In this document: in pieces, positions 617-61,052 of the stretch
Layout: each line of letters starts with the position of its first letter
Numbering within the stretch: position 1 is the first letter of the stretch
Assembly (NCBI GenBank): GCA_964016885.1
Contig: OZ024740.1
Coordinates: 296,794,001 to 296,858,000 of the forward strand
Length of the DNA: 64,000 bases
Direction of reading: 5' to 3'
Origin: Eledone cirrhosa
Lineage: Eukaryota
Notes under the pieces: generated by a model
What the model saw: the letters and a program-made list of their open reading frames with translations, nothing else
What the model was told of the DNA's origin: nothing
Database searches by the model: none
Made by a program: the position numbers and the translations under genes

Positions 617-679
<63 letters not shown>

Positions 680-711
680 AATAACAAAGAACGCCTATAG
701 CATATGCATAT

Positions 712-769
712 CTTTACTTGCTAACATTGTTTCATCCGCACTATAAGTGGGACTCATCAGAGCATAAAG
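712..769 (-). ncRNA. Minimal type I hammerhead ribozyme (3' pLTR)
   Basis: Minus strand reads CUUUAUGCU-CUGAUGA-GUCCCACuuauaGUGcGGAU-GAAA-CaauG-UU-AGCAagUAAAG. Stems I and II pair and stem III is near-palindromic. Confidence 0.88.
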
Positions 770-1441
770 GTTAATTACATACCATACAAGCAATAACAAA
801 TCCAAGACATTGAAGAATGAAAAATAATAATAGACGATAAAGGATATTAAGGAAGTAAAAGTAAAAGTAAAGATAAGAATAAAAATAAAAATAAAAATAA
901 AAATAAGATAATAAAATAAACAATGAAAAATAAAAAAATGAAAAATAAGGGGTGCTATCAGTCACAGTTGGGCTGGGTGCTGTCAACATATAGTTACATA
1001 CAAGCATACACATGGATAAGAGAACAGACAAGAGTAGATGAGATAGATAGGATTAGGTAAGAGTAGGTAAAAAATAGGTGAAAAACAGACTTATAATATA
1101 TATAAGAAAATATAAAGAAATACATAACAAACTTACATATAAACTATAAAATATACAGATAATAGTGATACAGGGTAAGGAATGAGATAAAATAATATAA
1201 AATTAAAATTAAAATTATATAAAATAGAACATAATATAATATAATCATAAAATAAGATAAAATAAGGTAAACTAAAATAAAATAAAATAGACTAAATTAA
1301 AATAATATAATATAAGATATAATTAAATGTAATTAAATAAATAAATAAATAAATAAATAAAGTTAAATAAATAAATAAAATTAAAATTAAAAGTAAAATT
1401 AAATTTAAATAAATAAATAAATAAATAAGTAAATAAATAAG

Positions 1442-1476
<35 letters not shown>

Positions 1477-2897
1477 ATGGAATTAAATAAGTAAATAAAT
1501 AAAATTAGATAACATGAAATGAAATAAAATAAAATAAAATGAAATAAAGTAAATTGAGATAAGATATATATTTTTTTAGAATATATCTCCTGAATATATC
1601 AGGGGCCCACGAAGGCACTAATTGTCACAGTTATGTGTATCACTTGACCATTGCAAGGCAATGGAGGCGTCCCAGGTTGGGCAGTCTCAAAAGTTCACTC
1701 GAAAGTCGCGGGTGTGCATTCACACAGTTGAGCGGTGGGGTAATCACAAACCGGTTCACACCCGGGCAGGAGTCCAATGGTCAGAGAGAGGTGCATCGAA
1801 GGAAGGTAGGAGAATTCACGTGCATTAGCAAGCGAGGTGCAGGCGGGTTAGCCAAAGCAAGCAGACACTGTTGGAGCGCATACAAAAGATATATAAAAAG
1901 ACAGAAGATATATAAAAAATAGCTTCAAGAGCCATTAAGTCACCGCATTGGGACATCACAAGATTGTACACATCAATATGTTCAGCACGTATATGCACAT
2001 ATACACACCACATGCATATGCAGAGACGGTATACATATATATATATATTTTTTTTTATATACAGACATATACAACCACCTACACCCATACACATATAAAT
2101 GTATACACGGACACACACGCACACACACACAGCGTAGGACACCCGGGTCAAAGCTGATATTAAACACCGAAATACCACATTAGGCCAGACCCACCACCAC
2201 GGATAATACATTCAAAATAAATACATACGATGAGATGTAGTAAAATAAAGTTGAAATCCTACGGAGATAATCATGTCCGCACGTGCCATTGCCCGATTCA
2301 AGTGTACACAGACCGTTAGTAACTACGGAGGGCTATCGGGGCCAAAACGTTACTTTCGGGATCATAACAACGACCGTCAATATATGGAAGGCCGATCGTG
2401 CTAGAAAGACTACAACCCCGGGCAAGAGCTCCCAGAAGTCAGCCTGTAGATCTTAAACCACAGAATATGAGGGCAACACGTACATGCGCCACGTATCCAC
2501 TGCTTACGGCGGGATGGCACAGGTCCGCCCACAGTTACAGGCTAAATTTCTATTAGTGCAGCCTAAATCACAGTACACGCTTTACATAAATACATTACAT
2601 CACAACTCATGCGCATACAGAGGTACAGATCCACAAGATATACGTCAGGATAGACCCACCAATGCACCAATGGTGGGTAGGCGAGCGTGGATGGGTTACA
2701 TCCGCTGTGCCAAACAGGGGTGCTTATTAACATACACCCCCACTCACCTGTACACCCCAATATCCAGATCAATATCCTCCCACAGGCATACGTATACATT
2801 CACCGACTCATATACATAGACGACCAACAATAGGAGACAGTTACACACAATCAGAGACAGTTACACAAGACAGCCCAACTGGAGGAATAAGGAAGTG

Positions 2898-5388
2898 CTA
2901 GCTAACAGGTTTAAAGTAGAAGAAAGAGCTTAATATTCGGTGGGGGCAAGAGGAAAATATTTCAGACTTTCTATTTAGTAGAGGGCATTTAGCAAATATA
3001 ATAGAGTGGGATTCGGCAAGGCATAGGTTACATACTCTATTATGAGGAGTATATGGATGGGATTTAGCAACCTGCCGCCAAGTAAGTGTGTAATGTGTTC
3101 GTGCATTTTTTAAATTATGGACGTACGCTGACAAGGAGGTGGAGTTCCTCAGTTTATTATGTCTAAAAGTGCATTGGTGAGAGTTAAACCTGGTCTTAAA
3201 GGGGGGTGGAGGTTGATCCTATATAGGTCTTAGTGGACGCCGTAGTTACTACATCACACGCATAAACTATGTTTCTAACAAGGCAGAAACCATTCAGGGG
3301 GCAGCCTGAAGCCCTTCTACAGTTACAACCTCTGGTGATGCTATTCTCAGAATGATCACCACTTGTGTTTCTGCCCACTCTGTCCACTACCGTGTTTTCC
3401 CCTAGGCTTAGGTCGTCCAGGCCTTCTTTTATTTTCTTATTATTAGTAATGGCCAGATGAGAGGCCAGATTTTGGGTTGTAGAATACGAAAGTTTAACAA
3501 CATTCTTATTGAGGATAGAGTGGTACCTATTACCATGAGGGAAGTTCCTTTCTAACACAGAGAAGAAGGCCCTAGGAATATTTATAGCCACTTCAGAATT
3601 AAAAGGGGGGTTGAAGTATGTATTCAATCTTCTTCTATTCTTTTTAATCTTTCTATTTCCATCAGTATTATTAGCATTATTATTTCTACGGTTCCTATGC
3701 TCACCTAGTCTATGCGGGAAGCTGCGAGGCCTACCATTGCTATTACTTAGACTAATGGTGCCCTGCTGGTTCATTCCACCGGCATCTAGAAACCTCCCAT
3801 TCGCGACACCTCTATTGCTATTACTTAGACTAATGGTGCCCTGCTGCTTCATTCCACCGGCATTTAGAATCCTCCCATTCGCGACACCTCCATTACCAAT
3901 GGACATATTATGTGTTATAACAACACTGGTAGAGCTACTATTAGGACTATTATTTCCCTGGGTGTAATACAATTTGTCCCTAAAGCCGGATCTAGCTAAG
4001 GCATCATTATAGTAATCAGCCTGCGAGTCAAACGCCTCCTCACTATGTGAGAGTGAACTTATTCTGTTAGATACGCCCTTCAGTATACCGCTGATGACCG
4101 ACCTAGGGTGGTTAGAGTTGGTATTCACGTAAGTCTGCAATTCATTAGGCTTATGGTACGGTGTGTACGTATGGTTATCCAAGTCCAATGTAACATCCAG
4201 GAAGTTTACAGTTCTATCATTTATATCCATAGTAATGGATAGGTTAAATGTTTTAAAAAACTATGCAGCTTTTTCCTAATGCGCACTATATTATACTTAC
4301 TAGTATCTATGGAGAGTAGGGCGTCATCCCGGTACAACCCGCCCCTAAGGAAAGGGAAGTTACTATGCAGTTCATTGAGGAGGTATAGCCCAACTAAGTC
4401 GGTGACTTGAGCAGAGTCACTCGACCCCATAGTAATGTCAAAATTATCAGGTGTGTTTTTTCTCGTCCATAGATTATCCTCAAACATGATAATGGTTTTA
4501 CGTGCAGCGAGAACAATATCTATCTGTGGCCTTGTAATTGCCCCCCTCTGCATGGCTAGGATGAGGGCCTTATTGAGGATAATAGGAGATATAGATGTAT
4601 AATAAGCATCAATATCAAATTGGATGAATTTGAGTGAGTCACGACCACAATCCGTAGAGAACCACGTAATGACCTCACTAGTGTTACCCCAAAGCTCAAG
4701 GAAAGTTTTTTCTCTAACCAGGGGAATAACGCTATCCAAGATTCCCTTACTAATAATCCCCAGGTCAGACTTGGAGGGGCAGATAAGCCTAACTGAGGGT
4801 CTGCTAATAAAATCTTCCTTGTGGTCCTTGAGGGTGAATCTAGGCTGCTTGGGGTAATAAGGCTGAGTGTGTTTATCCAGACCTAGTTTTACCACTATGT
4901 TATACCCCTCCAGATTAATATTATCTAAATTACTCTGCGTTGTTTTTTTGTAGTTCCTATGTAGTTCATTATAAATGAAGCCTCGATAGGTTTTATAATC
5001 CATACTATATAAGTTTTTAGTTTTGTCAGAGGGGACCAGAATGGATTTATTATCCCTAAAGTCCCTAACGATTGAAGTTAGTTTACTCTGAAATTTATTG
5101 GTACATCTAGATTTTTTATATCTAATATTCCTAACAAGGGATAATAGCTCACTTTCGAAGTTATCCAACAGGCTATTATGCGGGGGGCTCCTATAGGTCT
5201 TAAATCCATAATTATTAAAACTACGCCTCTCTTCAGGGCTATCATACTTCTTATCAAAATGGAACGCACGCCACCGAACACGTTTTACGAATGAGTTTAT
5301 GCTAGTTATCAGTGATTTCTCATATGAGATTTTAGGGGGGGGGGGGAATATTCTTCAAGGAAATGGGTAAGTATGTCTTTGTTAGCAT
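2898..5388 (-). CDS. PLE reverse transcriptase-GIY-YIG endonuclease, broken by three single-base homopolymer frameshifts
   Basis: Motifs MLTKTYLPISLKNIP, RVRWRAF, LVPSDKT, TLKDHK, FIQFDIDAYY, FDITMGS, GLYRDDAL, NFLDVTLD, SNHP, FNPPF, CNCR..CPLNGFC, IVY...YIGST, CNLCLAE, LLNRKSE..SCPH. Confidence 0.9.
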
Positions 5389-5590
5389 ACTGCTTGATAA
5401 TATACAAGGACACAAATCCGCGTATATCAAAGTTTAAGCTCAACCAGTGGGAGCCGTATAGTATACTAGAGAGAGGATCAGGGGTGTATAACACTCCACT
5501 TATCCAGCAGGCAGTATAAGGTTAGCTCAATGTCTGAGGACAGAGCCGTGATATAATAAATAACAAAGAACGCCTACAGCATATGCATAT

Positions 5591-5648
5591 CTTTACTTGC
5601 TAACATTGTTTCATCCGCACTATAAGTGGGACTCATCAGAGCATAAAG
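5591..5648 (-). ncRNA. Minimal type I hammerhead ribozyme (5' pLTR)
   Basis: Same 58 nt as 712-769. Confidence 0.88.
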
Positions 5649-6737
5649 GTTAATTACATACCATACAAGCAATAACAAATCCAAGACATTGAAGAATGAA
5701 AAATAATAATAGACGATAAAGGATATTAAGGAAGTAAAAGTAAAAGTAAAGATAAGAATAAAAATAAAAATAAAAATGAAAATAAAAATTGCCCGGGGTT
5801 GTAGTCTTTCTAGCACGATCGGCCTTCCATATATTGACGGTCGTTGTTATGATCCCGAAAGTAACGTTTTGGCCCCGATAGCCCTCCGTAGTTACTAACG
5901 GTCTGTGTACACTTGAATCGGGCAATGGCACGTGCGGACATGATTATCTCCGTAGGATTTCAACTTTATTTTACTACATCTCATCGTATGTATTTATTTT
6001 GAATGTATTATCCGTGGTGGTGGGTCTGGCCTAATGTGGTATTTCGGTGTTTAATATCAGCTTTGACCCGGGTGTCCTACGCTGTGTGTGTGTGCGTGTG
6101 TGTCCGTGTATACATTTATATGTGTATGGGTGTAGGTGGTTGTATATGTCTGTATATAAAAAAAAATATATATATATATGTATACCGTCTCTGCATATGC
6201 ATGTGGTGTGTATATGTGCATATACGTGCTGAACATATTGATGTGTACAATCTTGTGATGTCCCAATGCGGTGACTTAATGGCTCTTGAAGCTATTTTTT
6301 ATATATCTTCTGTCTTTTTATATATCTTTTGTATGCGCTCCAACAGTGTCTGCTTGCTTTGGCTAACCCGCCTGCACCTCGCTTGCTAATGCACGTGAAT
6401 TCTCCTACCTTCCTTCGATGCACCTCTCTCTGACCATTGGACTCCTGCCCGGGTGTGAACCGGTTTGTGATTACCCCACGGCTCAACTGTGTGAATGCAC
6501 ACCCGCGACTTTCGAGTGAACTTTTGAGACTGCCCAACCTGGGACGCCTCCATTGCCTTGCAATGGTCAAGTGATACACATAACTGTGACAATTAGTGCC
6601 TTCGTGGGCCCCTGATATATTCAGGAGATATATTCTAAAAAAATATATATCTTATCTCAATTTACTTTATTTCATTTTATTTTATTTTATTTCATTTCAT
6701 GTTATCTAATTTTATTTATTTACTTATTTAATTCCAT

Positions 6738-6772
<35 letters not shown>

Positions 6773-7452
6773 CTTATTTATTTACTTATTTATTTATTTA
6801 TTTATTTAAATTTAATTTTACTTTTAATTTTAATTTTAATTTTAATTTTATTTATTTATTTAACTTTATTTATTTATTTATTTATTTAATTACATTTAAT
6901 TATATCTTATATTATATTATTTTAATTTAGTCTATTTTATTTTATTTTAGTTTACCTTATTTTATCTTATTTTATGATTATATTATATTATGTTCTATTT
7001 TATATAATTTTAATTTTAATTTTATATTATTTTATCTCATTCCTTACCCTGTATCACTATTATCTGTATATTTTATAGTTTATATGTAAGTTTGTTATGT
7101 ATTTCTTTATATTTTCTTATATATATTATAAGTCTGTTTTTCACCTATTTTTTACCTACTCTTACCTAATCCTATCTATCTTATCTACTCTTGTCTGTTC
7201 TCTTATCCATGTGTATGCTTGTATGTAACTATATGTTGACAGCACCCAGCCCAACTGTGACTGATAGCACCCCTTATTTTTCATTTTTTTATTTTTCATT
7301 GTTTATTTTATTATCTTATTTTTATTTTTATTTTTATTTTTATTCTTATCTTTACTTTTACTTTTACTTCCTTAATATCCTTTATCGTCTATTATTATTT
7401 TTCATTCTTCAATGTCTTGGATTTGTTATTGCTTGTATGGTATGTAATTAAC

Positions 7453-7510
7453 CTTTATGCTCTGATGAGTCCCACTTATAGTGCGGATGAAACAATGTTA
7501 GCAAGTAAAG
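7453..7510 (+). ncRNA. Minimal type I hammerhead ribozyme (inverted arm)
   Basis: CTTTATGCT CTGATGA GTCCCACTTATAGTGCGGAT GAAA CAATG TT AGCAAGTAAAG on the + strand. Confidence 0.88.
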
Positions 7511-8180
7511 ATATGCATATGCTATAGGCGTTCTTTGTTATTTATTATATCACGGCTCTGTCCTCAGATATTGAGCTAACCTTATACTGCCTGCTGGATA
7601 AGTGGAGTGTTATACACCCCTGATCCTCTCCCTAGTATAATATATATATATATATATACAGAGATACATATATATATATATATATACGTGTGTGTATGTA
7701 TGCATATATATATGTTTGTGTGTCTGTATGTATGTATGTGTATGTGTATGTATGTATGTATGTGGATAAGGGAGCTTATAGATAGGACAACACACGCTGT
7801 CTTTTCGTAGGTTAAGTTTTTAATTAATTTTTGTATTTTGAAACATCAAAATACAACAATTCTTTGGTCACTGGACTCGGGAATGTCATGACAGAAGTTT
7901 GTGGAAGTTACACAAATATTTTCGTATATTTTACCAGGGCAATCCTTATTTATATTTTACATTTTACATTTACTTACATCTCAAAATAACATGGCTAAAA
8001 AAAATTCAAATTTTGCAAAGAGAAGAAAACTGAACTACATGCATCTCACTGCCCCCCCCCTCCCCCCCATCGCCACCACTATTACGTGTACACTCTCTCC
8101 CTACCACCACATTTACATTTACACACCCTATCTAGACTAAAGTTACCGACCTGTTGTCCAACACTCTACTCTGTGTTGAA

Positions 8181-8786: not shown

Positions 8787-9736
8787 ATATAAATTAGCGA
8801 GAATCGTATTTCGGCTTAGGAATTAACTAAAAACAACTTCCAAGATGTGTGGCAAGCGCTCAATGATTCAGATGAACCAGAGCTACAACATACGTTAAAG
8901 GCCAAACACACTAAGACGATGGTTAAACAATCATCCTCACTGCCGTAAAAACGACCAAGTAATTCGGGTCAAACCAATAAAAATATATGTGATTGAAAAT
9001 TTACCCAGACCCCTGGATGATTGGTAAAATCCAGCTTTTGGGTTTCTGCGACTTCTAACTCAAGTACTGTCCGCTTACAGAAATAATGTTAGGCTTCTGG
9101 TAAGATGTTTGAACAAGGAAGCCACTTTTTCAACATGTATTAGTTCGAGTGCTAATTTAAGGAATGACCGTTACCGACGCCACGTGGGGCTCGGCAAGGC
9201 AGGCAATCCTTATTTTAGGCGGATGAATTCAGTATGTGTATAAAATTGCAAGAATGCAAAACATCACATATATGTGTGTGTGTGTAAGTGAGTAGCGTGT
9301 GTGTGTTTGTATGTATGTATGAGTGTTGGTGTCTGCGCGCGTATGTATGTGTGTGTGTGCGCGTGTGTGTATATCGTAGGTATAAGTGTCAATAAGTGAG
9401 TTTTTTTGTTTTTTTATGCGCGGGGACAGAAATAATCGGACTGGATGCCCGATCACGCAGTTAAACCACTGGGAGTGAGGAGCCCCTAGCACTTGTCAGG
9501 GCATTCTTCTAGGAGAAGGCATCTCAGGAAACTGGGTTTATTCCGACATAAAACCTGCGGCTCAGTAGTTACCGATGATGTTGATCTTTTCTTCTTTTCG
9601 GGTTATAGCTACTGTCGCTCAGGGAGTGGGTTTGGCTCAGGGCACAGTCTTTCCTCACTTTAAAAATATTCGTCACGCACAGGCATTGCACGATTGCATT
9701 AATTAATAATTATTAATAGTGTATTACTGGTCTCCT

Positions 9737-30828: not shown

Positions 30829-30833
<5 letters not shown>

Positions 30834-31024
30834 ACCCAGTAAGACCCCGACAGTTGAGCTCAAGCCGTTTCGACGGCTAATTCTGGACGTCCAGAATTAG
30901 CCGTCGAAACGGCTTGAGCTCAGCTGTCGGGGTCTTACTGGTTCCTATTACCCACTCTACTATCTCAAGTATTGAGTACTTTGGTGCGTTATGGTCCACC
31001 TGGTTCCTTACCACATTTCCTTCG

Positions 31025-31026
<2 letters not shown>
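30829..31026. mobile_element. Fold-back PLE pLTR fragment in (TA)n: ~60-bp inverted arms plus ~78-bp tail, with the 3' half of a hammerhead
   Basis: Palindrome centred on CTGGAC|GTCCAG (30888/30889). The right arm has GAAA-CGGCT tgagctc AGCTG-TC-GGGG. Absent from the other units. Confidence 0.75.
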
Positions 31027-35105: not shown

Positions 35106-35748
35106 GTAAATGTTTCACATATTAATTTACTGAATATGTCCATGGAGGTAAATATGTAAACTTCACTCTATCCTCCAGTTAAGCTCTAAGTCAGCACTAA
35201 TTGAACAGACCTCTGTTCAAAATCATTCCAGACATTATCATACCATCTTTTAGTTTAGTCTGCCCACACCTAACTTTGTTTCTCTATAATTTTCTCCATA
35301 ATTCAATTTCTACATACAATTTTCAAAGTGTAGATTATGATTAGTGAATTTTTAAAATTCTTTCATTACCATATATAGTTCCATTTATTAATATTTTCCT
35401 TTACTGAATACTTTCAATTTGTAGTCTAAACATAAACTGGAAAATGTTTTCAGTCATACCTCCCATTATCATTGTGTTAATGAATGATATCATTCTGGAT
35501 AATGTAGTCTTTTCTATAATTATTAATTGTGAAAAATATATTCATAATATTTTTATTTCATCAATATAATCATTATCTTGAAAATGCTAATCAGTTATCA
35601 TGAGCAGTTTTCAGGTTTTAATAAACACTGTTGTGTTTTGTATAGTTTACACTGCATTATCAGAAGTGTATGTAAACACTTTAGTCTGATACAAACCTGA
35701 TACCTTTAGTTGCACAGAGACTGTGACAAACCCATTAATATGTAATGT

Positions 35749-36354
35749 CAGCTAATTTGCCACAGCCTCTGATGAATGTATCACTGATGAATGTATCTCA
35801 GCAAATTTGCCACAGCCTCTGATGAATGTATCTCAGCTAATTTGTCACAGCCTCTGATGAATGAATCACTGATGAATGTATCTCAGGAAATTTGTCACGG
35901 CCTCTGATGAATGTATCACTGATGAATGTATCTCAGCAAATTTGTCACAGCCTCTCATGAATGTATCACTGATGAATGTATCTCAGGAAATTTGTCACAG
36001 CCTCTGATGAATGTATCACTGATGAATGTATCTCAGCAAATTTGTCACAGTCTCTCATGAATGTATCACTGATGAATGTATCTCAGCAAATTTGTCACAG
36101 CCTCTCATGAATGTATCACTGATGAATGTATCTCAGGAAATTTGTCACAGCCTCTGATGAATGTATCACTGATGAATGTATCTCAGCAAATTTGTCACAG
36201 CCTCTGATGAATGTATCACTGATGAATGTATCTCAGCAAATTTGTCACAGCCTCTCATGAATGTATCACTGATGAATGTATCTCAGGAAATTTGTCACAG
36301 CCTCTGATGAATGTATTACTGATGAATGTATCTCAGCAAATTTGTCACAGCCTC
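35749..36354. repeat. 50-bp minisatellite, ~12 copies
   Basis: Unit CAGCAAATTTGTCACAGCCTCTGATGAATGTATCACTGATGAATGTATCT, period 50. Confidence 0.95.
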
Positions 36355-36616
36355 AAAACGTATCTCAGAAATATTAGAAAACACTTTGTTACACATTTGC
36401 TTCATACAACAGATGCTACTGAAAAAGGCAAACCATGTTATTTGATGTTACCCACATGTGTTTGTACAGAATATGGAAATACATTATAATATTTTCCCAC
36501 AAAGCTTTTGCTTTAGTTTCCTACATGTTACACATTTCATGATCAATGAGTTACTATGTATTTCTTTGTCAACCTTTATTATACAACAAATGATTTCTCT
36601 TAGCAAATGGCCGTCA

Positions 36617-37545
36617 ATGATACCTGTATGTGAAGTGTGATGTTTTATGGTAGTGAGATATACAGTCTATGATGTCTGTATGTGAAGTGTTATGTTGTAT
36701 GGTAGTGAGATATACAGTCTATGATGTCTGTATGTGAAGTGTGATGTTGTATGGTAGTAAGACATAGAGTTTATGAGACCTGTATGTGAAGTGTGATGTT
36801 GTATGGTAGTAAGACATAGAGTTTATGATGTCTGTATGAGAAGTGTGATGTTGTATGGTAGTGAGATATACAGTCTATGATGTCTGTATGTGAAGTGTGA
36901 TGTTGTATGGTAGTGAGATATACAGTCTATGATGTCTGTATGTGAAGTGTGATGTTGTATGGTAGTGTAGTAGTGAGATATAAACTCTATGATGTCTGTA
37001 TGTGAAGTGTGATGTTGTATGGTAATGTAGTAGTGAGATATACAGTCTATGATGTCTGTATGTGAAGTGTGATGTTGTATGGTAGTGAGATATACAGTCT
37101 ATGATGTCTGTATGTGAAGTGTGATGTTGTATGGTAATGTAGTAGTGAGATATACAGTCTATGATGTCTGTATGTGAAGTGTGATGTTGTATGGTAGTGA
37201 GATATACAGTCTATGATGTCTGTATGTGAAGTGTGATGTTGTATGGTAGTGAGACATACAGTCTATGATGTCTGTATGTTAAGTGTGATGTTGTATGGTA
37301 GTAAGACATAGAGTTTATGAGACCTGTATGTGAAGTGTGATGTTGTATGGTAGTAAGACATAGAGTTTATGATGTCTGTATGTGAAGTGTGATGGTGTAG
37401 AGTAGTGAAACATGCAGACTATGATGTCTGTATGTGAAGTGTGATGTATGGTAGTGAGATATACAGTCTATGATGTTTGTATGTGAAGTGCGATGATGTA
37501 TGGTAGTGAGACATACATTCTATGCTGTCTGTATGGTAGTAAGAC
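36617..37545 (+). repeat. ~52-bp minisatellite (~17 copies) derived from RTE coding sequence
   Basis: Unit TATGATGTCTGTATGTGAAGTGTGATGTTGTATGGTAGTGAGATATACAGTC encodes SVMLYGSE. Confidence 0.9.
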
Positions 37546-39599: not shown

Positions 39600-42500
39600 T
39601 TAATAACAATAATAATGATTTCATTTATTAGCCACAAGGGCCGATATGTAGGGGAAAATACAAAGACAGGGACAGTGGGGGTTTACAATAAGGTCGAGTA
39701 AAAGTGCACAATGGCAAGACTAATTTAACAATGAAAATATAAAAAATATAAAATAAACTATGCATAAATATAACAAAATAAATTCCCCGATAGGAGGTGG
39801 ACGACTCTGGGGTGACTCGGGTACCCCACCAATCCTGAACGACCCTGCGCTTCTAGGGCACCCAGGGAGAGCACCCCTCTCTTCAAGTTAGCTAGCCTAT
39901 AGGCGCATGGTCAGAGTAGGCCCATTCACACGAGCCATTCTCGCCACATTCACCCACCTTTTAGCAAATGTACTGGGGGGCAGCACTTCTCTCTCCACCC
40001 TCATCTTCCTTTCCAGGTGAAACTTGAAGAAGTTGATGAGGGATTGGCCGAAGAGAAAAGTATCTGTCTTCAGTCCTTTTAACCTGGTCCACCATACAAC
40101 CTCTTTGGCAACTGCCACCAGACAGAGGGACATTTCCTGCTCTTCCTGGCCTGGCGGTGGATCGATCTTCACTATGGACACGGCCGATAGCCGGATTCGT
40201 TCCACACGTGAGAGTAGCTGTTCGACATAACTCCACAAGTCAGTAATGCACGGACATTGGTCAAGTGCGTGCAGAACGGTTTCGTTGTTCTGTGCGCATC
40301 TTGGGCAGGTCCGTCTGACAGCACTTCCGTGCCTGTAGAGTTTATCCCGAACCGGCAGTCCCCCCCCCCTCCCGGTGGCACTACCAAGCGAGGGATTTCT
40401 GGAAATTGTCCATCGTCCCCGGCTCAAAAGTCCTCCGGTACAGACTGGTCAGTTCTACTTCGTCGAGGCCCAAAGCTCCGAGTGCGTCATCGCACTTGCC
40501 CACCACTAATCCTCTATAGAACTCGAGAGTGGAAGTTCCACTGATCGCATTGCCCGCTTGCTAGAGGGCAGTGAGTGCCTGGCAACATTCCAGGTGCCAG
40601 TCACCCAGTCTCGGTCTCTTCTTGACTCAGGACTGCAGTTCAGTCAAAGAAATGAGCTGCAGAAAGGCCCGTCTGATAAACGGCGACCACACCTGTTCAC
40701 CGTTGAGGTAATATATCTGGAGATGTCGCAGCCTCAACGCATGTCTGCGCATCATTAGCCACGGCATGCCCAGCCCTCCGCGTAGAGGGTGCTGGAAGCA
40801 GATGGACCGCCTCCCAACGGAACTTTTCCCCTCCACAAGAATTTGAAGAGGAGCCGTTCCAACTTGACGAGGCGCGGACGGGGCAAGGCACGACGGCCAG
40901 GCGGTAGTAGATGACGGACGCGATGTACGCATTCGCCACCTCCGCGCGACCTTTCAGTGATAGCTTCCCTCCAGCCCATTTTTGGGTGAGACTGGCTACT
41001 CTGCTCGTTACCTCGTCCTAATTCTTTTCCACCTAGAGGTCTGGTCCGAACCAAACGCCGAGCAACGTTACCGGTCCGTCCGTCCAGCGCCCCACGACGC
41101 TGTTGGACGGCATGGGCTTGCCTCTCCAGGTTCCGAGCTGCAAGCCCACCGACTTTTCCGGGTTAAGTTTGGCTCCTGTCAACCTTTCATATTCCTTCAA
41201 TAAGGTGCCGACCACCTCGATTTCTGAGGTGTTCGACACCATCACGGTGATGTCGTCCGCATAAGCTGACACCGCCTTTCCACGTCCCGGTTCGAGCGGG
41301 ATGCCCTGCAACAGCTCCAGCTTCCGCAGTAAAGGCTCGAGAGTCAATACGTACAGAAGGGAAGAGAGAGGACACCCTTGACGGACCGATCGGGAGAGCC
41401 AAAATGGTTCCGAGAGGTGGCCATTAACCTTGACCACCGAGCGTGTGCCGCTGTGCATTGCAGCGATCCAGCTTCTAAAGACAGGGCCGAAACCAGCTGC
41501 TTTGAGGACAAACTTCAGATACCGATGGTCGACCCTATCGAATGCTTTCGATTGATCTAAATTGATCAGTGCCCCACCGAAGCCAGGTTTACACCCTACC
41601 CTCTCTATGATGTTTCGCATGAGGTGCAGATTGTCGTGTATGGACCTGGCTGGGATTGCGCAAGTTTGCGCCTCCCCAACCAAATCCTCGACGACAAGCG
41701 CTAATCTCTTTGCTAACACCTTGGCCAAAATCTTAAACTCTGTGTTGAGCATAGTTATGGGCCTGAAGTTGTCTAATGTATCCCTCTTGTTCTCGTATTT
41801 CCTTATCAGCGTCACCACTCCCCTGCTCACAGAACTGGGAATACTCCCATTCTGCTGTCAGTTGCAGTAGAGTGCTTCGAAAAGTTCGAACAAGTCTGGC
41901 ATATTTACGTAAAGCTCGTAGGGCAGGCCATCCAAACCGGGTAACTTGCGCCTCATGCAGCCGACAAGGGCGTCCTGAATTTCGGCTGAAGTAATCGGCC
42001 TTTCGCAGCGCTCAGCGTCGACCGTCGAGATGCGCGGCAAGCCGTCAAGGTAGGGACTGAAATCTGCTACTCTCTCTGACTCGCCACTCTCCCCGAACAA
42101 CCTAGCAAAGTGCTGGCGAAAGGCCTCACACATCTGCTTGGAATCGCTTATCTCGTGTCCGTCTCGGTCCGCCAAAGACTGAATTGTGGTTTTATTACCA
42201 CGCTGCGCCTCCTCCACGCGGGCCCATCGAACAGCTTTGGTTCCCTCGTTTCTCAGCGCATGCGCCTTAGCTCTGACAATGCAACCTTCGTGTTTGGCAT
42301 TGAAGAAATGGTCTAATGCCATTCTCGCCGCTAGCACGTCAGTTGCAATGCCACTACAAATAGCCTCGTCTAACTTATCTACCAGCTCTCCCTCCTTTCT
42401 ATTTTTCTCTAGCGCTAGTTCTTTGCTGAACTCTATCGAAGTTACTCTAATCTCTCTTTTGAGAGCCCCCACCATCTGTTGTTGATGATCCCCCTGTCAA

Positions 42501-43258
42501 CTTTTGCTTAACTAAATTGTTGACTCGGTCCCTGTAAGCCTTACGTACCGGAAATGACATGTTCAACTTCCAGTAACCCGGTCCTAACCTACGCGTTTTA
42601 TCTAGGTCGACCGTACAGATCACAAATTTACCAGCTCCCCCTCCTTTCTATTTTTCTCTAGCGCTAGTTCTTTGCTGAACTCTATCGAAGTTACTCTAAT
42701 CTCTCTTTTGAGAGCCCCCACCATCTGTTTTTGATGATCACCCCTGTCAACTTTTGCTTAACTAAATTGTTGACTCGGTCCCTGTAAGCCTTACGTACCA
42801 GAAATGACATGTTCAACTTCCAGTAACCCGGTCCTAACCTACGCGTTTTATCTAGGTCGACCGTACAGATCACAAATTTGTGATCTGAATAGGCGACCAT
42901 TTTAAAAAGTGGGCAGCCCACACTATTTCTATCTATTTTCCTAATGAAGATCCTGTCTATATACGATCTAGACGACCCCATTCGGTTGGTCCATGTCCAC
43001 ATTGGCACATTGGGGAAATCTAGTCGATACCTGTCAGACAGTTGGAACTGGCTGAGTAGGTGCTTGAGGCTTTTTCACCCCCGCTCCTATCGGCTACTCC
43101 CACACAATCCCAGCGTGCGTCTAAGATGCCATTCCAGTCACTCGCTAACAGTAAAGGGCGAGACGTACCCAGAAATGTCTCCAGGCGCCTAAAGAAGTCC
43201 GGTCGTCCGGTCCCTGTAGGGGCGTAGACAGCCAGCAGTCTAAAGGCACCACCTTCGC

Positions 43259-43260
<2 letters not shown>
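39600..43260 (-). mobile_element. Tx1/L1-clade LINE, 5'-truncated and frameshifted (APE endonuclease part, RT, C-terminal Cys domain, (ATT)n tail)
   Basis: VYAP, SYIDRIF, SDH, GYWKLN, PGLDGLPYE, NFRPITMLN, LDQSKAFDRV, VRQGCPLS, AYADDIT, GGLGMP, CPRC..ETVLHAL..CP. Confidence 0.92.
42381..42879. repeat. ~249-bp internal tandem duplication in the Tx1 ORF
   Basis: CCAGCTC.CCCTCCTTTCTATTTTTCTCTAGCGC...CACAAATTT occurs at ~42382-42629 and ~42631-42879. Confidence 0.9.
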
Positions 43261-43291
<31 letters not shown>

Positions 43292-43419
43292 CTTTCTTTA
43301 TTAACCACAAGGGTTTACATAAAGTAGACATTAAGGACAGTACAGGACAATACAGGACGGTACAAATGGGCATTTCTGCGTGTAAAATAACAATAATAAT
43401 AATAATAACAATAATAATA
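43261..43419 (-). mobile_element. Short Tx1 3'-tail fragment between (AAT)n tracts
   Basis: TTTCTTTATTAACCACAAGGG matches the Tx1 termini at ~39618 and ~46856. Confidence 0.65.
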
Positions 43420-46400
43420 GTTCGAATAACGGTGAAGTGGAGACTGGAATGTCATGTGACAGACTCTCACCCAGCAGGTGCTCCTTGGCTCAGCAGCAGG
43501 AACCTGGCTGTCAACCAAATACTGCTGGTGTCGGAGGAAGAAGAGGAAGGAAAGGGACCAGAACCAACTGGACGAAAGAATTGAATAGAACTGTTATGCA
43601 ATGTTACCTGAAGAGTAACCCCAAGGAAAAAGGCTATAGGAAACAGATGCACAACATCTGGAACTAGATTGGTCTATTTAAATTAGATGAACAAAAATTG
43701 GCCGGGCAGGCTCGGGTAATAAGAAGTAATGGGTGGATAAGCGAGCTGGAACTGGAGGAACTGAGCAGAGAGAGTAGGTTGGAAATGGAGAGTGGAGTAT
43801 TCCAGGCAAACGAGCCAGTGGGAAATGAAGGTGAAGAGGTTGAGGGAACGGAGGAACCATCCGAAGCAGACAATGATCTGAATGCTGAAATAAATAATAC
43901 CTGGAACAGAGATACGGCCATTGAGGAGATGAATTCTGACGGGCTAGGACAAGAGTTGGTTGATATCCTAAACTTAGTGGTAGATGAAATGAACAATGAT
44001 AGTGGGAGACCTATGAACGTAAGATTTGTAGACAGGAAAAAGTTAAAAGAAACAACAGCTAAGGTAAACAAAGTCATCCCATACCTTGAGGCTAGGAGCC
44101 TTCACCAGTGCAACAATATCCTCAAAGCAACAGCAAATGCGGTGAGGAAATTACTTGGCATAAAAACGAGAGGAAACAACAAACAAGAAAGATCAGAACC
44201 TTGGTGGAAGAAACGACTGAATGGTCAAATCAGGGAAATGAGAAATGACATTGGAAAGCTTGAGTCCCTACTGAATGGGACACTAAAAAACATAGACACT
44301 AAAAATAGATTGGAAATAAAGTACAAAACTAGGAGGAAAAAGCTAAATATTATCATAGAAGAACTGAAGCAACGCATTGTAGCAAAGAGTGCAAAAATTA
44401 GGCGATACGAGAGCAGAGTCAGTCAGTATAGACAGAACCGCATGTTTGACAACAACCAGAAGATGTTGTTTGGACAGCTTGAAGGGAAAGAAAGAGGCAA
44501 CGACTTGATCTCTGAGGCGGAACAAACTAAGACATTCTGGAGAGGAATATGGGAGCAGGATGTTAAACATAATGACCAGGCAGTGTGGATTAGGAGATAA
44601 TTGAACAGGCACACCAACAAACTGATTTGAGTATCACAGTTGAAACTCTAAAAAACTAACCAACAGGAAATCACCAGGCCCAGATGGTGTGCAGAGGTAT
44701 TGGATTAAAAATATAACATCCCTCCACCCGAAACTGACAACCATGTTCAATGACTGCTTGATGTCAGGTGAGGTACCAGAGTGGTTGACAAAAGGTACCA
44801 CAGTTCTGGTAATGAAAGACCGAATCAAGGGTAATGATGTTACCAACTATAGACCTATCACATGTCTGTCCGTAATGTGGAAACTGTTGACAAGAATAGT
44901 GTCTGAGGAAATCTACCATCACCTGCACACAAACAACTTGTTACCGGACGAACAGAAAGGATGCCGAAAGAAGTCCCGTGGTAGAAAGGACCAGTTACTT
45001 ATTGATAAGATGGTAATGAGGAATTGCAAGAGGAGACACATCTTGCAATGGGATGGATAGACTACAAAAAGGCATTTCACATGGTGCCTCATTCTTGGAT
45101 CACCAAAAGCCTAGAGATCTTCAGGGTGGCAGATAACATCAGACAGTTGTTGAGCAAAAGTATGAAGTCCTGGAAAACGGAGTTAACATCAGCTGGAGAA
45201 TCCTTGGGAGGCGTGAAGATCAAGAGAGGTATCTTCCAGGGAGATAGTCTGTCCCCTCTGTTGTTTGTTCTTGCCCTGATGCCCCTGACCATTATACTGC
45301 GAAAAGTGAGAGCAGGATACAAGTTGGGAAAGGGAGAGCTTACCATCAATCACCTCCTCTTCATGAACGATCTTAAGCTCTCCGGGAAGAGTGAGAAGGA
45401 GTTGGATGTGGTTGTTGACACTGTCCGTATTTTCAGCAATGATATATGTATGCAATTTGTTATTAGTAAGTGTGGAGTCCTTGTGATGAAGAGGGATAAA
45501 TTGAGCAGACGGAATCCAGGTACCAACAGGTGAAATGATAAAGGAAATTGACACTGAAGAAGGATACAAGTATTTGGGTGTTCTGGAGGCTGATGACATC
45601 AAGAACAAAAAAATGAAGGAATTGATAAGATCTGAATACATTCGGAGAATAAGGAGCGTATTAAAGTCACATCTGAACAGTAGGAATGCCATAAGTGCAG
45701 TAAATTCCCGAGCTGTGAATGTTGCTGAGCAAAAAGAAATGGATAGGAAGACTAGGAAGCTATTGGTTATCTACAACATGTTCCACAAGAGGAGTGATGT
45801 CCATAGACTCTACTTAAGGAGATCTGAAGGTGGAAGAGGTCTTATCAGCATAGAGGACTGTGTTCAGATGGAGAAAAACAACCTACACAAATACATGACC
45901 GATAGTAAGGAGCCAATGCTCAGAATTGTACTGAAGGAGAGGACAATAGACCAGGGGATGTCCAAGGAGGAAATAACAACAAGGAGAAAGAGCAGCCTTC
46001 ATGAAAAATCCCTTCCTAGTACCTTCTTTGAGAAAACGGAATTCAGAGATCCACAGACATGGAACTGGTTGAAAAGAGGAGACCTTAAAAAGGCTACAGA
46101 AGGAATGATAATGGCTGCGCAAGAGCAGGCCCTCAAAACGAAGTGACTGAAACACCATTTTTACAAGGAGGAGGCTAGCCCACTGTGCAGAATCTGTGGA
46201 GAGAGAGAGAGGAGACTGTGGCTCACATTGTATCCGAGTGTAAACACCTAGCCCAGACTCACTAGAAAGGCTGGAGACATGATGTGATGGGCAGGGTGAT
46301 CCACTGGCACCTATGCAAAGTAAACACTTTACCACATTCTGATAAGTGGTATGAGCATAAACCAGAGTCGGTGATAGAAAACGATCAGGTGAAGGTGCCG

Positions 46401-46830
46401 TGGGATTTTAGGATACAGACGGACAAGAAACTGGAACACAATAGACTGACCTGGTGGTTTTGGACAAGGAAAAAAGATCATGCCTGATTGTGAATGTGGC
46501 CTGCCCATTCGACACGAGAGTGCAAGAGAAGGAGAGGGAGAAAATTAACCGATACCAAGACTTAAAGTGGGAGGTAAAAAGATTTGGAACTGCCATGAGG
46601 TCAAAGTGGTCCTGATTGTCATAGGCGCACTAGGTAATATCTCAAGGAGTTTCCAGGGTTGGTTAAAGAAAATTGGCCCCGCCCCGCTTTTTGGAACACT
46701 TCAAAAGGCATGCTTGATGGGAACAGCAGGAACCCTCCGATACGTCCTGAATATCTGAGGCTGCAGGTAGTGGCTTGATATTCATTTCAACAAACTTTCC
46801 AGTTAAATAACATCAATGACTGAGACTCAA
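43420..46830 (+). mobile_element. Dong/R4-clade non-LTR retrotransposon (RT plus restriction-like endonuclease), degraded, in (TAA)n
   Basis: PWWKKRL, KSPGPDG, NYRPITCLS, EQKGCR, WIDYKKAF, GIFQGDSLSPLLF, INHLLFMNDLKL, YKYLG, CRICGE..ETVAHIVSEC, RHD, WDFRIQTD, VACP. AAT repeats on both flanks. Confidence 0.88.
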
Positions 46831-46852
46831 ATAATAATAATAATAATAATAA

Positions 46853-47915
46853 TGATTTCTTTATTGGCCACAAGGGCTGACATCAGGAAAAATATTGCAG
46901 ACGGCACAGGACGGTATGATATGGGTTTTGTGCGTGTAAATATTTTTATTATTTATATAAGAAAAGAAAAAAAAGACATAGAAACATATATATATATATA
47001 TAAACAATAAAAATGAAAATTGAAACAATGAAAAATTCCCCAATAGGGGGGAAACTTCCGAGGGTTACTCGTGGCGAAAACCACACAAAATACCATCGCC
47101 ACCCTGACCACCAGGGCAAGCGCCCTCTCTCAATTTTTCCATTTCTCAAACTACAGACGTATATTCAGAGCGGTCCCGATCACTCGGACCATTCTCGCTA
47201 CATTCACCCACCTTTCAACAAACTTGCTAGAAGGCAGCACTTGCCTCTCCACCCTGATTTTCCTCTTCAAGTGAAACTTGAAAAAGTTAATTAGGGATTC
47301 GCCGAAGAGGAAAGTGTCTGTCTTTAACCCTTTCAACCTTGTCCACCACACAATCTCTTTCGCCATGGCCACCAGACAGATGAAAACCGCCTGCCCTTCC
47401 TCCTCGAAGGAAGACGGCGAGACCATCTGCACAATGGACTCAGTCGATAACCGGATCAGTCCTACACTCGACAGTAATTGTTCGACATAGCTCCACAAGT
47501 CAGCAATGCTCGGGCACTGAAGGAGTGCGTGCACGACTGTTTCGTCGCTCTGCGCGCATCTCGGACAGGCTCGGCTGACGGCACTTCCATGCCTGTAGAG
47601 CTTATCTCGAACTGGCAGCGCTCCCCGGTAGCACTGCCAGGCCAGGGATTTTTGGAAGTTATCCATAGGCCCTGGGCTGAAAGTTCTCCGGAAGAGAGCA
47701 AACAGCTGATCTTCTTCAACGCCCAGGATCTCTCCGAGAACGTCGTCTCTCTTCCCCTCCACTAGTCCTCTATAGAACGCCGAGGTGGATGTTCCACCGA
47801 TACTGGTGCCCAGCTGGCAGAGGGCAGTGAGCGCCTGGAGATATTCCAGTTTCCAAGCGCTATCCCTCGGTCTTTTTCTGACCCAGGACTGCAGCTCCGT
47901 CAAGGAGACCAGTAA
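46853..47915 (-). mobile_element. 5'-truncated Tx1/L1-like LINE 3' end (250-aa C-terminal ORF fragment plus 3' UTR)
   Basis: ORF 47151-47903 is homologous to 39897-40640 (CPRCAQSDETVVHALLQCP) and has the same tail. Confidence 0.9.
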
Positions 47916-48131: not shown

Positions 48132-48900
48132 TCGGGATGACTTCTAACAGTTTTAAGACTCGCTGGTACGCCCATACACATTCGTTCCGGCGCCCAGACA
48201 AATCTAATCAAACTACACTCGCCGCCCACATCTGGCACCTTAAAAGGAACTCCATCCCCTTCAAGACCCAATGGAGGCTACTCCAGAGAGCGCGATCCTA
48301 CACGGGAGGCCATAATTGCTGTGACCTCTGTATCTCCGAGAGCTATGAGATTCTATTCGCCAAAGGCCCTCTCCTCAACAAGATCTCGGAACACTCCCCC
48401 AATTGCATGCACAAGAACTATGCAAATTACAAAAACTACAGAACCACCCGGCTCCCCGACTGCCCCCCCCCCCCATATCACCACCCCACCCCCGTCCCCC
48501 ATCCCACTTCTGTCCCTCCATCTCTCATTATTACCTTCTTTCCTCCCCTCTATCTCTCATTATTACCTTTTTTCCTCCCCTCCAGGTCTTATATATTGTG
48601 TTGTATGCCTCTGAGTAAGGTTCCGTGGCCGCACACACAAATTCACGTATATAGCTGCTCATGTATGCATACGTGCAGTTATGAACTGCTGCACGCACAC
48701 GTTCGAGATTAATTTATTTATCTATTTATTTGTATATTTATTTATTTATTTATTTATTTATTTAGTTACTTTATTTATTTATTTATCTATTTATTTATTT
48801 ATTTATTTATTTATTTGCTTGTTTATTTGTTTATCTGTTTGTTTGTTTGTTTGTTTGTTAACTCATTCATTTATTTATTTATTAATGAGTGAGTGATTGG
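48132..48900 (+). mobile_element. 5'-truncated Naiad-like PLE fragment (GIY-YIG C-terminal half plus 3' UTR with (ATTT)n)
   Basis: IGMTSNSFKTRWYAH...LAAHIWHLK...CDLCISE...LLNKISE..CMHK aligns with the other two PLE ORFs. The right boundary is uncertain. Confidence 0.85.
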
Positions 48901-49177: not shown

Positions 49178-49244
<67 letters not shown>

Positions 49245-49732: not shown

Positions 49733-51102
49733 TATATGATTTTTAATGCAATGAAATATCTATGATCGTCGGCAAATCACTGATGAGGGACTTATTTTAT
49801 TACATGTTATCCATGTGCAACCAGCAGTATTCTTCTCCCCATTTTTTCACATATATATGTGTGTGTATGTGTGTATATGTATATATGTGTGTATGTATGT
49901 GGTTTTGTGTGTGTGTATGTATGTGTATGTATGTATGTGTGTGCATATGTATGTATATGTATGTATAGTATAGTTTATACCGAGAGACATACATACATGT
50001 ATGTGTGTATATATGTATGTGTAGATATATATGTATGTATGTGTATATATATATATATGTGTGTGTATGCAATTATATATGTGTGTGTATGTGTATGCGT
50101 GTGTATGTGTATATTTGTGTGTATGTGTTTTTCCTTGTGTGTATATATATGTGTATATATGTATGTATATATATATATATATATATTTCCTCACACTTCC
50201 ACTCACTCACTGTTTCTCCTCTTCTCACTTCACCCCGTTCGTGACGAAAACATTTTCTCTCTTTCTCACATTTGGATTCGTTCCCGAAAGGTCTTTTTTC
50301 TAAGCCCTCATATATTCACCTAGCTTATGCTAACATAATAACTATGAAGCTTGTTCCCTTCCTTCTACGGTTAGCTCTCCTCTTTGTTGTTATCTTGTCT
50401 CACTAGCTTTACGCGTTTTAATTGTCCTAATAACTTAATTTAGTTATTATTGCACCGACGTGAGGTATATGATTTTTAATGCAATGAAATATCTATGATC
50501 GTCGGCAAATCACTGATGAGGGGCTTATTTTATTACATGTTATCCATGTGCAACCTGCAGTATTCTTCTCCCCATTTTTTCACATATATTTACCTAAACT
50601 GCGATTCTGTTTTTTTCTCTCTCTCTCTCTCTCTCTTACTGCTCCCTCGTTCTCTCTGTTTCTCCTACTTTCTTTCGCCCCCTCTGTCATGTCAGTTAAC
50701 TCTTCCTCACACTTCCACTCACTCACTCACTGTTTCTCCTCTTCTCACTTCACCCCGTTCGTGACGAAAACATTTTCTCTCTTTCTCACATTTGGATTCG
50801 TTCCCGAAAGGTCTTTTTTCTAAGCGCTCATATATTCACCTAGCTTATGCTAACAGAATAACTATGAAGCTTGTTCCCTTCCTTCTACGGTTAGCTCTCC
50901 TCTTTGTTGTTATCTTGTCTCACTCACTTTACTCGTTTTAATTGTCCTAATAACTTAATTTAGTTATTATCGCACCGACGTGAGGTATATGATTTTTAAT
51001 GCAATGAAATATCTATGATCGTCGGCAAATCACTGATGAGGGACTTATTTTATTACATGTTATCCATGTGCAACCTGCAGTATTCTTCTCCCCATTTTTT
51101 CA
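49733..51102. repeat. ~520-bp tandem repeat (about 2.5 copies, the first interrupted by microsatellite) in TA/TG repeats
   Basis: TATATGATTTTTAATGCAATGAAATATC occurs at ~49733, 50466 and 50986. TTCCTCACACTTCCACTC occurs at ~50187 and ~50703. Confidence 0.9.
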
Positions 51103-51194
51103 TATATATATATATGTGTGTATAGGTATGCATATATATATATATATGTGTGTGTAAGTGTTTATGTATGTGGTTGTGAGTATGTAAATATATT

Positions 51195-51439: not shown

Positions 51440-51801
51440 TTTTATTTACTTATTTATATATTTACTTTTTCTTTTTTTTTTCTTTTCCTTTTATTTCAAA
51501 AAAGCACTCTGGCTAATTGACCACTCCCCAAAGCAAAAACGGCCTGTGCCATGTTGTGGTCCTGTGTATCTAAATACCATCCTACCCCAAAAATCCCCCC
51601 CTCCAGCCACGACCCCTCCCTTACCACTACCTAAATGTATAAATACCAGAACTTAATATGACACCCAGCTTCCTGAAGATTTCATCTGAATGAAACAGTA
51701 CTAGTCCTGTAGAAGCTCCTTCTATACAATAAATATATTTTACTCTGCCATGTATTGAGTACCTTACTTACTGTGGTTAGCCCGACTCAACCCGGGACCT
51801 A
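51195..51801 (+). mobile_element. Solo PLE 3' UTR/pLTR fragment
   Basis: (ATTT)n tract, then a hammerhead, AATAAA at 51728, and an end in (TA)n. Confidence 0.65.
51667..51717 (+). ncRNA. Type I hammerhead ribozyme
   Basis: AGCTTC-CTGAAGA-tTTCAtcTGAAt-GAAA-CAG tactagtc CTG-TA-GAAGCT, with a perfect 6-bp stem I and a GUA cleavage triplet. Confidence 0.88.
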
Positions 51802-51823
51802 CGTATATATATATATATATATA

Positions 51824-54272
<2,449 letters not shown>

Positions 54273-54331
54273 ATATATATATATATATTTTTATGAAAGT
54301 AAACCAAAGAAGCCTTCAATACATCAAAAGT

Positions 54332-54385
54332 CTTTATTAGCCAACAATGTTTCGTCCTATTAAGGACTCATCAGGGCAATTAAAG
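54332..54385 (-). ncRNA. Minimal type I hammerhead ribozyme (3' pLTR of element 2)
   Basis: Minus strand reads CUUUAAUUGCC-CUGAUGA-GUCCU uaau AGGAC-GAAA-CauuG-UU-GGCUAAUAAAG. Confidence 0.9.
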
Positions 54386-58892: not shown

Positions 58893-59105
58893 ACTGTCAA
58901 ATATATATAAAGGCCAAAACACCAGTATATAGGAGGAAGCTCAACCAGTCAGGAGCAGTAACAAGAATTTAAAATACTAGAGTGTGTTGGAGTTACACAC
59001 CCTCTTCGTATTATAGAAATGACAGTAAAAGTATAGCTCAATGTAATTAAACAGAGCCGAAGAATTATGAAAGTAAACCAAAGAAGCCTTCAATACATCA
59101 AAAGT

Positions 59106-59159
59106 CTTTATTAGCCAACAATGTTTCGTCCTATTAAGGACTCATCAGGGCAATTAAAG
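59106..59159 (-). ncRNA. Minimal type I hammerhead ribozyme (5' pLTR of element 2)
   Basis: Identical to 54332-54385. Confidence 0.9.
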
Positions 59160-59179
59160 CTATAAGAAGCACTATATAT

Positions 59180-60814: not shown

Positions 60815-60821
<7 letters not shown>

Positions 60822-61052
60822 AGCTTTCACTGTATTTTTGACTAAAGAAATTTTAGCCTGATAATGGGGTTTAGAACCTCAGATAAATGGAAGAAGATGA
60901 GTATTGACGTACATGGGAGTCAATACTCATCTTTTTCCATTTATCTGAGGGTTCTAAACCCCATTATCAGGCTAAAATTTCTTTAGTCAAAAATACGGTG
61001 AAAGCTATTCTATTTTCTAATTTCAAACCTGCTCACTGTTTCAAAACATACT
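60815..61052. repeat. ~95-bp-arm palindrome plus ~40-bp tail inserted in (TA)n
   Basis: AGAATAGCTTTCAC...GAGTATTGAC pairs with GTCAATACTC...GTGAAAGCTATTCT, with a ~10-nt spacer near 60909-60918. Confidence 0.9.

Follow-up and report, generated by a model that had tools for sequence, protein, structure and literature searches.

A duplicated leader hairpin lies just downstream of two 3' end sites in Hydra-clade PLEs of Eledone cirrhosa

The window analyzed here is a stretch of 64,000 nucleotides of the Eledone cirrhosa genome (contig OZ024740.1 of GCA_964016885.1), and it contains two PLEs, called element A and element B. Element A is double-ended and consists of a direct and an inverted arm, and element B is a single-ended insertion. 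Their features are as follows, the two end sites being described further below:

672-5785 (-), direct arm of element A; its 3' end meets (TA)n at site 1 (672-676)
5789-7644 (+), inverted, 5'-truncated arm of element A; its 3' end meets (TA)n at site 2 (7636-7644)
2898-5388 (-), ORF of element A, RT followed by GIY-YIG, broken by frameshift; ATG at 5388-5386; RWR, DKT, YRDD, CxCx5C and CxxC/CxH read from the translation
5598-5643 (-), minimal type I hammerhead of element A: stem I UGCU/AGCA, CUGAUGA, GAAAC, GUU
719-764 (-) and 7458-7503 (+), further hammerhead copies of element A, read from the sequence
54291-59172 (-), element B; its 3' end is at site 1, with 54291 corresponding to template position 59065
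56221-58892 (-), ORF of element B, frameshifted; motifs as in A, except DNT for DKT
59114-59151 (-), minimal type I hammerhead of element B; second copy at 54340-54377 (-)

In the translations of both elements an RT with YRDD precedes an endonuclease (EN) with VYAC..YIG, i.e., the EN is C-terminal, and no N-terminal EN is present. Both contain RWRAF, with DKT in A and DNT in B. The linker reads CNCRRASGC in A and CNCRVSSNC in B, which corresponds to CxCx5C, a CCHH motif is absent, and CNLC..E..N..CPH provides CxxC and CxH around a conserved E and N. Both also have a hammerhead in the pLTR and are inserted in (TA)n. The account of the Hydra clade in the main text of Craig et al. 2021 (PMC8557442) lists RT followed by GIY-YIG, RWK-type and DKT motifs, a CxCx5C linker without CCHH, a canonical hammerhead, (TA)n targets, an inverted 5'-truncated arm and a usual length below 3 kb. 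Judged by domain order, motifs, hammerhead and target, A and B are Hydra-clade PLEs and new members of this known clade. They differ from the usual length given there, as they are about 5 kb long with long AT-rich 3' regions. The earlier note had labeled them Naiad, an identity that was given up because Naiad elements have an N-terminal EN, a CxC domain and no canonical hammerhead, whereas the C-terminal EN and the hammerheads place A and B in the Hydra clade. Pfam matched no family on the protein pieces of A and B or on two full-length homologs (five proteins), and Rfam at gathering score gave no match in the window, the minimal hammerheads and the hairpin motif included. In both elements a long insert rich in Asn and Ser lies between RT and EN (A, 3734-3894 (-); B, 57055-57594 (-)); generic Hydra proteins lack it, and in element A it contains a 78-bp duplication.

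About 50 nt after the hammerhead, the leaders of both elements contain a first hairpin (hairpin 1, HP1), and a second one (hairpin 2, HP2) follows. These and related features of the window are:

5524-5547 (-), HP1 of A, GGCUC-UGU-ccucag-ACA-UU-GAGCU
59035-59058 (-), HP1 of B, stem identical to HP1 of A, loop uuaauu
7554-7577 (+), HP1 copy within the "tail" of the inverted arm of A; stem kept, with G-U in the upper stem
5437-5455 (-), HP2 of A, second copy of the HP1 motif
58938-58956 (-), HP2 of B
30832-31026, double-ended inverted mini-insert of another family, 195 bp in (TA)n
30954-30977 (+), hairpin of this mini-insert, ACUC-UAC-loop-GUA-UU-GAGU-ACUUU, base pair 1 being A-U instead of G-C
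51742-51760 (+), hairpin of a further family, ACUC-UGC-cau-GUA-UU-GAGU-ACCUU; hammerhead core upstream at 51673
8858-8883 (-), motif-fitting hairpin, 67 nt before a (TA)n junction; array copies at 18858, 22148 and 25443

On re-reading, the sequences and coordinates that the earlier note had given for HP1 and its copy, including the G-U pair, were exact, and the second hairpins reported for both elements are present. In the folded leaders the lower stems of the A and B hairpins pair with a probability of 0.73-0.99. The two leaders had been described as divergent; they are identical at 195 of 273 nt, and, thus, the comparison of A with B alone is weak and could not by itself show selection. The pattern GCTCY-N4-25-RTHGAGC matches the window nine times, compared with 0.57 expected matches, and none of 100 shuffles reached nine, four of the nine being copies of one site in a 3.3-kb array. 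The hairpin at 30954-30977 was matched by the motif model R2 outside of its training set (E 0.02); R2 ranks its five training sites 1, 2, 4, 8 and 11 among 22 matches at E<=10, and, therefore, the short model alone is not specific. The hairpin at 8858-8883 is likely to be the decayed end of another family; no intact hammerhead was seen upstream of it.

The start codons of both elements carry a motif, CAGTATGCTAACAAA, which had also been claimed as conserved. It is indeed present at 5392-5378 and 58896-58882, but it was found in none of the 78 metagenome loci described below and in none of 138 loci of the other families of this genome. As a conserved signal CAGUAUGCUAACAAA was rejected, as its conservation ends with families A and B.

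Several further features of the window were observed. A tandem array of about eight copies of a 3.3-kb unit, about 95% identical and composed of host sequence, microsatellites and transposon scraps, extends from 7636 to 33067; a match to the unit is also found at 1-683, which flanks element A, so that A sits in or beside the array. Two minisatellites with units of 50 bp and 52 bp are located at 35740-37535, and broken LINE-type ORFs of two lineages lie on both strands at 39897-47906. An endonuclease fragment of a further Hydra-like family (48137-48712 (+)) is followed by (ATTT)n and by (TA)n at 49184, with no hammerhead seen at the end. A tandem duplication of about 515 bp with CTGATGAG and CGAAAAC words at 49733-51112 is possibly a degenerate hammerhead-bearing repeat.

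The 3' ends of the arms were located on the template of element A, and two sites were found:

5551-5556 (-), end site 1, UUAUAU; the base that is matched last lies 4 nt upstream of GCUC; 19 of 20 site-1 ends are here
5456-5461 (-), end site 2, UACUAUA, 1-4 nt before GCUC; 23 ends

The direct arm of A (672-676) ends at template position 5551, just before HP1, and the inverted arm (7636-7644) at template position 5457, just before HP2, with the HP1 copy at 7554-7577 about 60 nt inside the arm. The claim that the element's 3' end lies a few nt before each hairpin thus holds for 5524-5547 and 59035-59058, but not for 7554-7577. Further copies were collected with queries upstream of both hairpins, and the resulting end counts of families A and B are lower bounds, because pure-TA flanks may have collapsed: in family A 19 of the 43 ends were 4 nt before HP1, 23 were 1-4 nt before HP2, and one was elsewhere; in family B (52 ends) 24 were 5-9 nt before HP1, 19 were 6 nt before HP2, five were scored 12-15 nt before HP2, and four were others. 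Four of the five with the larger distance have junction mismatches and are truly at 6-8 nt, and one is not in TA. The ends of family D are 2-3 nt before its own hairpins, three ends of families F/G (rows F and G2) are at 6-8 nt, and the family at 51600-51805, of which the window element ends in (TA)n at 51805, i.e., at site 2, has ends 3-8 nt before HP1 or 4 nt before a variant HP2. The same placement was seen in the metagenome loci with both forms (L163, L182, L183, L200, L209).

Genomic 3' ends thus cluster about 2-9 nt upstream of HP1 or HP2, usually at UAU. At least six families show this tracking of both hairpin copies to a few nt, and the expectation that termini are fixed relative to the hairpin was borne out in families A, B, D, F/G and the 51600-51805 family. 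TAT was found within positions -11 to -2 of 41 of 51 hairpins, with a peak at -3 to -5, compared with 7-20 in five control windows, and most junctions show TA-type microhomology of 1-6 nt. Outliers are five ends 8-20 nt short of site 1 (L063, L072, L285, L290, L291) and one that is 3 nt into HP2 (L279). A signal at the level of the target DNA was rejected, because no end includes the hairpin next to it; this hairpin must, therefore, act on the template. One locus (L164:440-477) has a (TA)n tract exactly at site 2 in an otherwise read-through leader, as if the end and the remaining leader had been rejoined, or as if the leader itself had been a target.

HP1 and HP2 have the same layout: their 5' side is GCUC, and their 3' side consists of a 2-nt bulge and GAGC. 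Read in this way, they are two copies of one motif, i.e., GCUC, upper stem, 2-nt bulge, GAGC and ACUYU. The earlier note had treated them as two separate hairpins; both are real, but they are one motif that is duplicated, with an end site for each copy. A profile of 19 homologous proteins yielded 78 metagenome loci, which were grouped into 60 families at a nucleotide cut of 75%. In the genome of the window, family D retains open reading frames of 709-713 aa. In the loci that retain the leader a common order recurs, namely hammerhead, about 50-85 nt, HP1, 36-79 nt, HP2, 5-58 nt and ATG. The strict hairpin was found in 28 of the 60 families and both hairpins in 20. Beyond the strict 28, three were found with a motif model (L179, L192, L204), two have UCUC/GAGA and three are irregular (L162, L173, L222), and many contigs are without leader.

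Covariation was analyzed with one hairpin per class and family. The resulting set of 54 hairpins represents 31 families, among them A, B and D of this genome. At the register with a 2-nt bulge the upper stem, taken as the four positions above GCUC, was paired in 153 of 187 cells, compared with 92.8±5.5 (maximum 114) in 20,000 column shuffles, and the registers 0, 1, 3, 4 and 5 gave only 29-47%. The covariation across families that the earlier note had envisaged was, thus, found. All four Watson-Crick types were seen at each of the upper-stem pairs 2-4, the bulge was UU in 33 hairpins, UC in 12, UA in seven and different in two, and the 3' flank was ACUYU. A pair count on 75 distinct rows gave 97.5% paired and 53 double-sided changes, compared with 17.5 after shuffling, and slid registers gave 11-52%. 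By class, the signal was strong for HP1 (96 of 107 cells versus 62.1 in shuffles); for HP2 (57 of 80 versus 49.1±2.8, maximum 60) the upper stem is weakly supported beyond the first C-G pair, and the firm core is GCUC-C..G-UN-GAGC-ACUCU. The first upper pair differs between the classes, being C-G in 24 of 26 HP2 and U-A in 19 of 28 HP1. In 15 independent family pairs 12 cells had changed on both sides and were paired, and eight had changed on both sides with a mismatch. G-U outnumbered A-C in the upper stem by 15 to 6, a modest strand signal.

The invariance of the lower stem is partly by construction, as the strict set was selected on GCTC...GAGC. Compensated lower stems were found as UCUC/GAGA in both hairpin copies of L169 and L170 (outside the strict set), as ACUC/GAGU in the two window families at 30954 and 51742, as GCAC/GUGC in one read-through copy (L340) and, by eye, as GCCC/GGGC in Hydra-1_Crog. 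Two variants of HP2 were observed. In families F and G (L309-L334) 65-70 nt are inserted between GCUC-C and G-UN-GAGC, so that the hairpin loop can be very long, and family D has the minimal form C-UUCG/CUCG-G. The hairpin has a resemblance to the histone 3' stem-loop (GGCUC/GAGCC); this candidate was rejected, because the latter needs a 6-bp stem and a 4-nt UUUN loop, and here the upper stem and loop range from about 6 to more than 60 nt and a 2-nt bulge is present.

By eye the motif is also present in four of the six new consensi published for the Hydra clade, these four being from coral, sea cucumber and copepod (Hydra-2_Amil, Hydra-1_Ajap, Hydra-2_Ajap, Hydra-1_Crog). The consensus of Hydra-1_Amil stops before the motif position, and in Hydra-1_Obim the motif is not clear by eye. 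The consensus breaks 2 nt before a hairpin in Hydra-1_Ajap and 6 nt before one in Hydra-1_Crog. Across the sequences compared, the motif is real and general in the Hydra clade. The words "hairpin" and "stem-loop" do not occur in the main text of Craig et al. 2021 (PMC8557442), and a literature search, with older subscription papers and figures outside its reach, found the motif described nowhere. PLEs were already known to have two start sites and a tail on one side only; this search did not, however, find a description of a covarying hairpin that is present in two copies with one at each site, of the UAU offset or of the nearly strict pairing of one end of each kind.

This pairing was seen in double-ended inverted insertions. 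One end at or near site 1 and one at or near site 2 were present in 49 of 51 cases, i.e., in 15 of 15 of family A, 20 of 20 of family B and 14 of 16 of family D (binomial p=6e-13 against 0.5). Single-ended copies use both sites (12 of 30 at site 1, 18 at site 2), so that an independent choice would give about half mixed pairs. The two exceptions, which pair like with like, both belong to family D (L302 with 2+2 and L304 with 1+1), and in six of the 49 mixed inserts one end was 8-20 nt off the usual base. The pair count left out L270 (the far end is from another family), L272 (a short inverted piece without end), the facing ends of L296/L126 (two separate inserts), the D loci without a second end found (L288, L294, L296, L303, L307) and 30 single-ended A/B loci.

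The window itself contains two examples of double-ended pairing, element A and the 195-bp insert at 30832-31026. In the latter the left arm stops 5-6 nt before the hairpin, and the right arm includes the hairpin and continues for about 50 nt beyond it. The majority of site-2 arms reach beyond site 1 and cover template that the site-1 arm also covers. Three short site-2 arms stop at the edges of HP1 (L240 at the 3' base, L286 at the flank edge, L276 at the 5' base), which is suggestive only. A comparison of arm with internal identity (one versus two RNAs) yielded too few differences, and one case was a truncation artefact.

Some inserts with related architecture were also observed. Fold-back inserts with a tail of 40-60 nt on one side occur in (TA)n at two places, at 53895-54270, which may hold a degenerate ACUC hairpin, and at 60815-61052, in which no hairpin was seen and which may belong to another PLE clade. 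In L270:1500-1760 (G000:C3:130237600-130237860) the end of another family is fused to a family-B arm; this end has a hammerhead-like core and a GCUC hairpin whose upper stem is 6 bp long, and a (TA)n junction follows after about 95 nt.

The choice of the start by PLEs, and why inverted arms carry a tail at one end only, is treated as an open question in passages of PMC8557442 and PMC11167929. The explanation that we favor, and consider rather probable, is that the hairpins set where the element RT starts inside its own RNA, with coupled twin priming. The hairpins are likely docking sites for the element RT, positioned downstream of the two fixed 3' ends. The earlier note had proposed that a cis RNA signal determines the position of internal initiation of reverse transcription; this fits the covariation and the end placement, the mechanism itself being inferred.

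In this mechanism a read-through transcript would carry the leader beyond the pLTR, and each hairpin would dock one RT-EN subunit of a dimer via the GCUC/GAGC stem, the U-N bulge and the ACUYU flank. The endonucleases would cut both strands of the (TA)n target, and each freed 3' end would pair, over 1-6 nt, with the UAU immediately 5' of its own hairpin before being extended. The HP2-primed end would copy HP1, which would give the one-sided tail of 57-100 nt, and joining of the two cDNAs would produce the inverted arm. Success of only one subunit would lead to a single-ended, 5'-truncated copy. Since the two arms have template sequence in common in most cases, a model with one RNA needs strand displacement. 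Binding, the dimer and the steps at the RNA level are postulated from the analysis. The most far-reaching version, to which we give a little less than an even chance, is that Hydra PLEs integrate by programmed twin priming: one RNA with two protein-binding hairpins and an RT dimer, of which each subunit would extend one end of a (TA)n double-strand cut from the UAU just upstream. This single design would account for the tail, the inverted arms and the internal initiation of PLEs, and the hairpin would be a portable 25-nt signal that lets any RNA be inserted.

Two other explanations are, to about the same degree, unlikely. The hairpins could direct RNA cleavage or the end of transcription just upstream, and two RNA species would then be copied by ordinary 3'-end TPRT. 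The fixed short offset between ends and stem, the self-cleaving hammerhead that is already in the leader and the observation that RNA-seq read ends of Poseidon PAc fall on its start sites (PMC11167929) are consistent with this. It does, however, leave the pairing of one end of each kind in 49 of 51 cases unexplained, PAc is reported to initiate internally regardless of the RNA 3' end (PMC11167929), the motif matches no Rfam family, and the UAU just upstream fits primer annealing. Alternatively, the hairpins could set the start, with each target end primed on a separate RNA and an asymmetric complex picking HP1 on one and HP2 on the other. The usual arm overlap would then be explained without strand displacement, and the different first upper pairs would allow the two copies to be told apart; on the other side, the distance from one start to the other stays within 57-101 nt, which would be expected if both sites are on one RNA, and several short site-2 arms stop at HP1.

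That the hairpins regulate translation of the ORF, as feedback by the element protein or via a host factor, and that the adjoining ends are coincidental, is very improbable. In all families examined the next ATG follows HP2 after 5-58 nt, and stable 5' leader hairpins can block scanning. The ends of at least six families, however, stay within a few nt of the one copy or the other, the distance to the ATG varies over that range, and none of 216 other loci has the start-codon motif. The option of translation control, which the earlier note had also offered, thus gained no support, as the distance is variable and the motif family-specific, and a secondary role of the hairpins in translation may exist. 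Least credible, and largely refuted, is that the microhomology of (TA)n with the TA-rich leader alone sets the ends and the hairpins serve something else. The 1-6 nt of microhomology at most junctions and the UAU enrichment agree with it, but the used sites are not the most TA-like ones: 34-102 of 209-223 leader positions score at least as high, and no end was found at the perfect TATATATA that leader B contains.

A short, clade-wide, covarying hairpin at a fixed offset to each end makes the choice of the start site by PLEs experimentally tractable, and it is possibly a minimal cis signal for RNA-templated insertion. The motif can also be used to find ends of Hydra families and non-autonomous passengers in assemblies. 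PLEs are the closest retroelement relatives of telomerase.

Structured RNA fixes the RT start in the hepadnavirus epsilon, in the R2 3' UTR and at the telomerase template boundary elements. The Hydra hairpin has no sequence match to these. In contrast to them, it occurs in two copies and is situated 3' of the putative start, and the end made there does not include it. In L1 twin priming both ends of the target break prime on the element RNA, which gives an inversion, and this is the likeness to the Hydra families. The second L1 priming occurs at random internal microhomology and the arms do not overlap, whereas both Hydra priming sites would be set by RNA structure and the arms usually overlap.

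The main text of the Hydra clade paper (PMC8557442) describes no leader motif, no two end sites and no rule of end pairing. Another related system is Poseidon PAc, for which Frangieh et al. 2024 (PMC11167929) state that RT has two internal start sites on the RNA, between which the genomic tail lies, that RNA 3' of the start is needed, that both strands are cut and extended, and that the protein is predicted to be dimeric; the start lies in a stem loop and is "not homologous" to the cut DNA. In the Hydra families analyzed here two genomic end sites likewise bound a one-sided tail. In contrast to PAc, the putative Hydra starts are within the untranslated leader, each on the 5' side of a sequence-specific hairpin that is present twice, with a tail of 57-100 nt and a short UAU microhomology.
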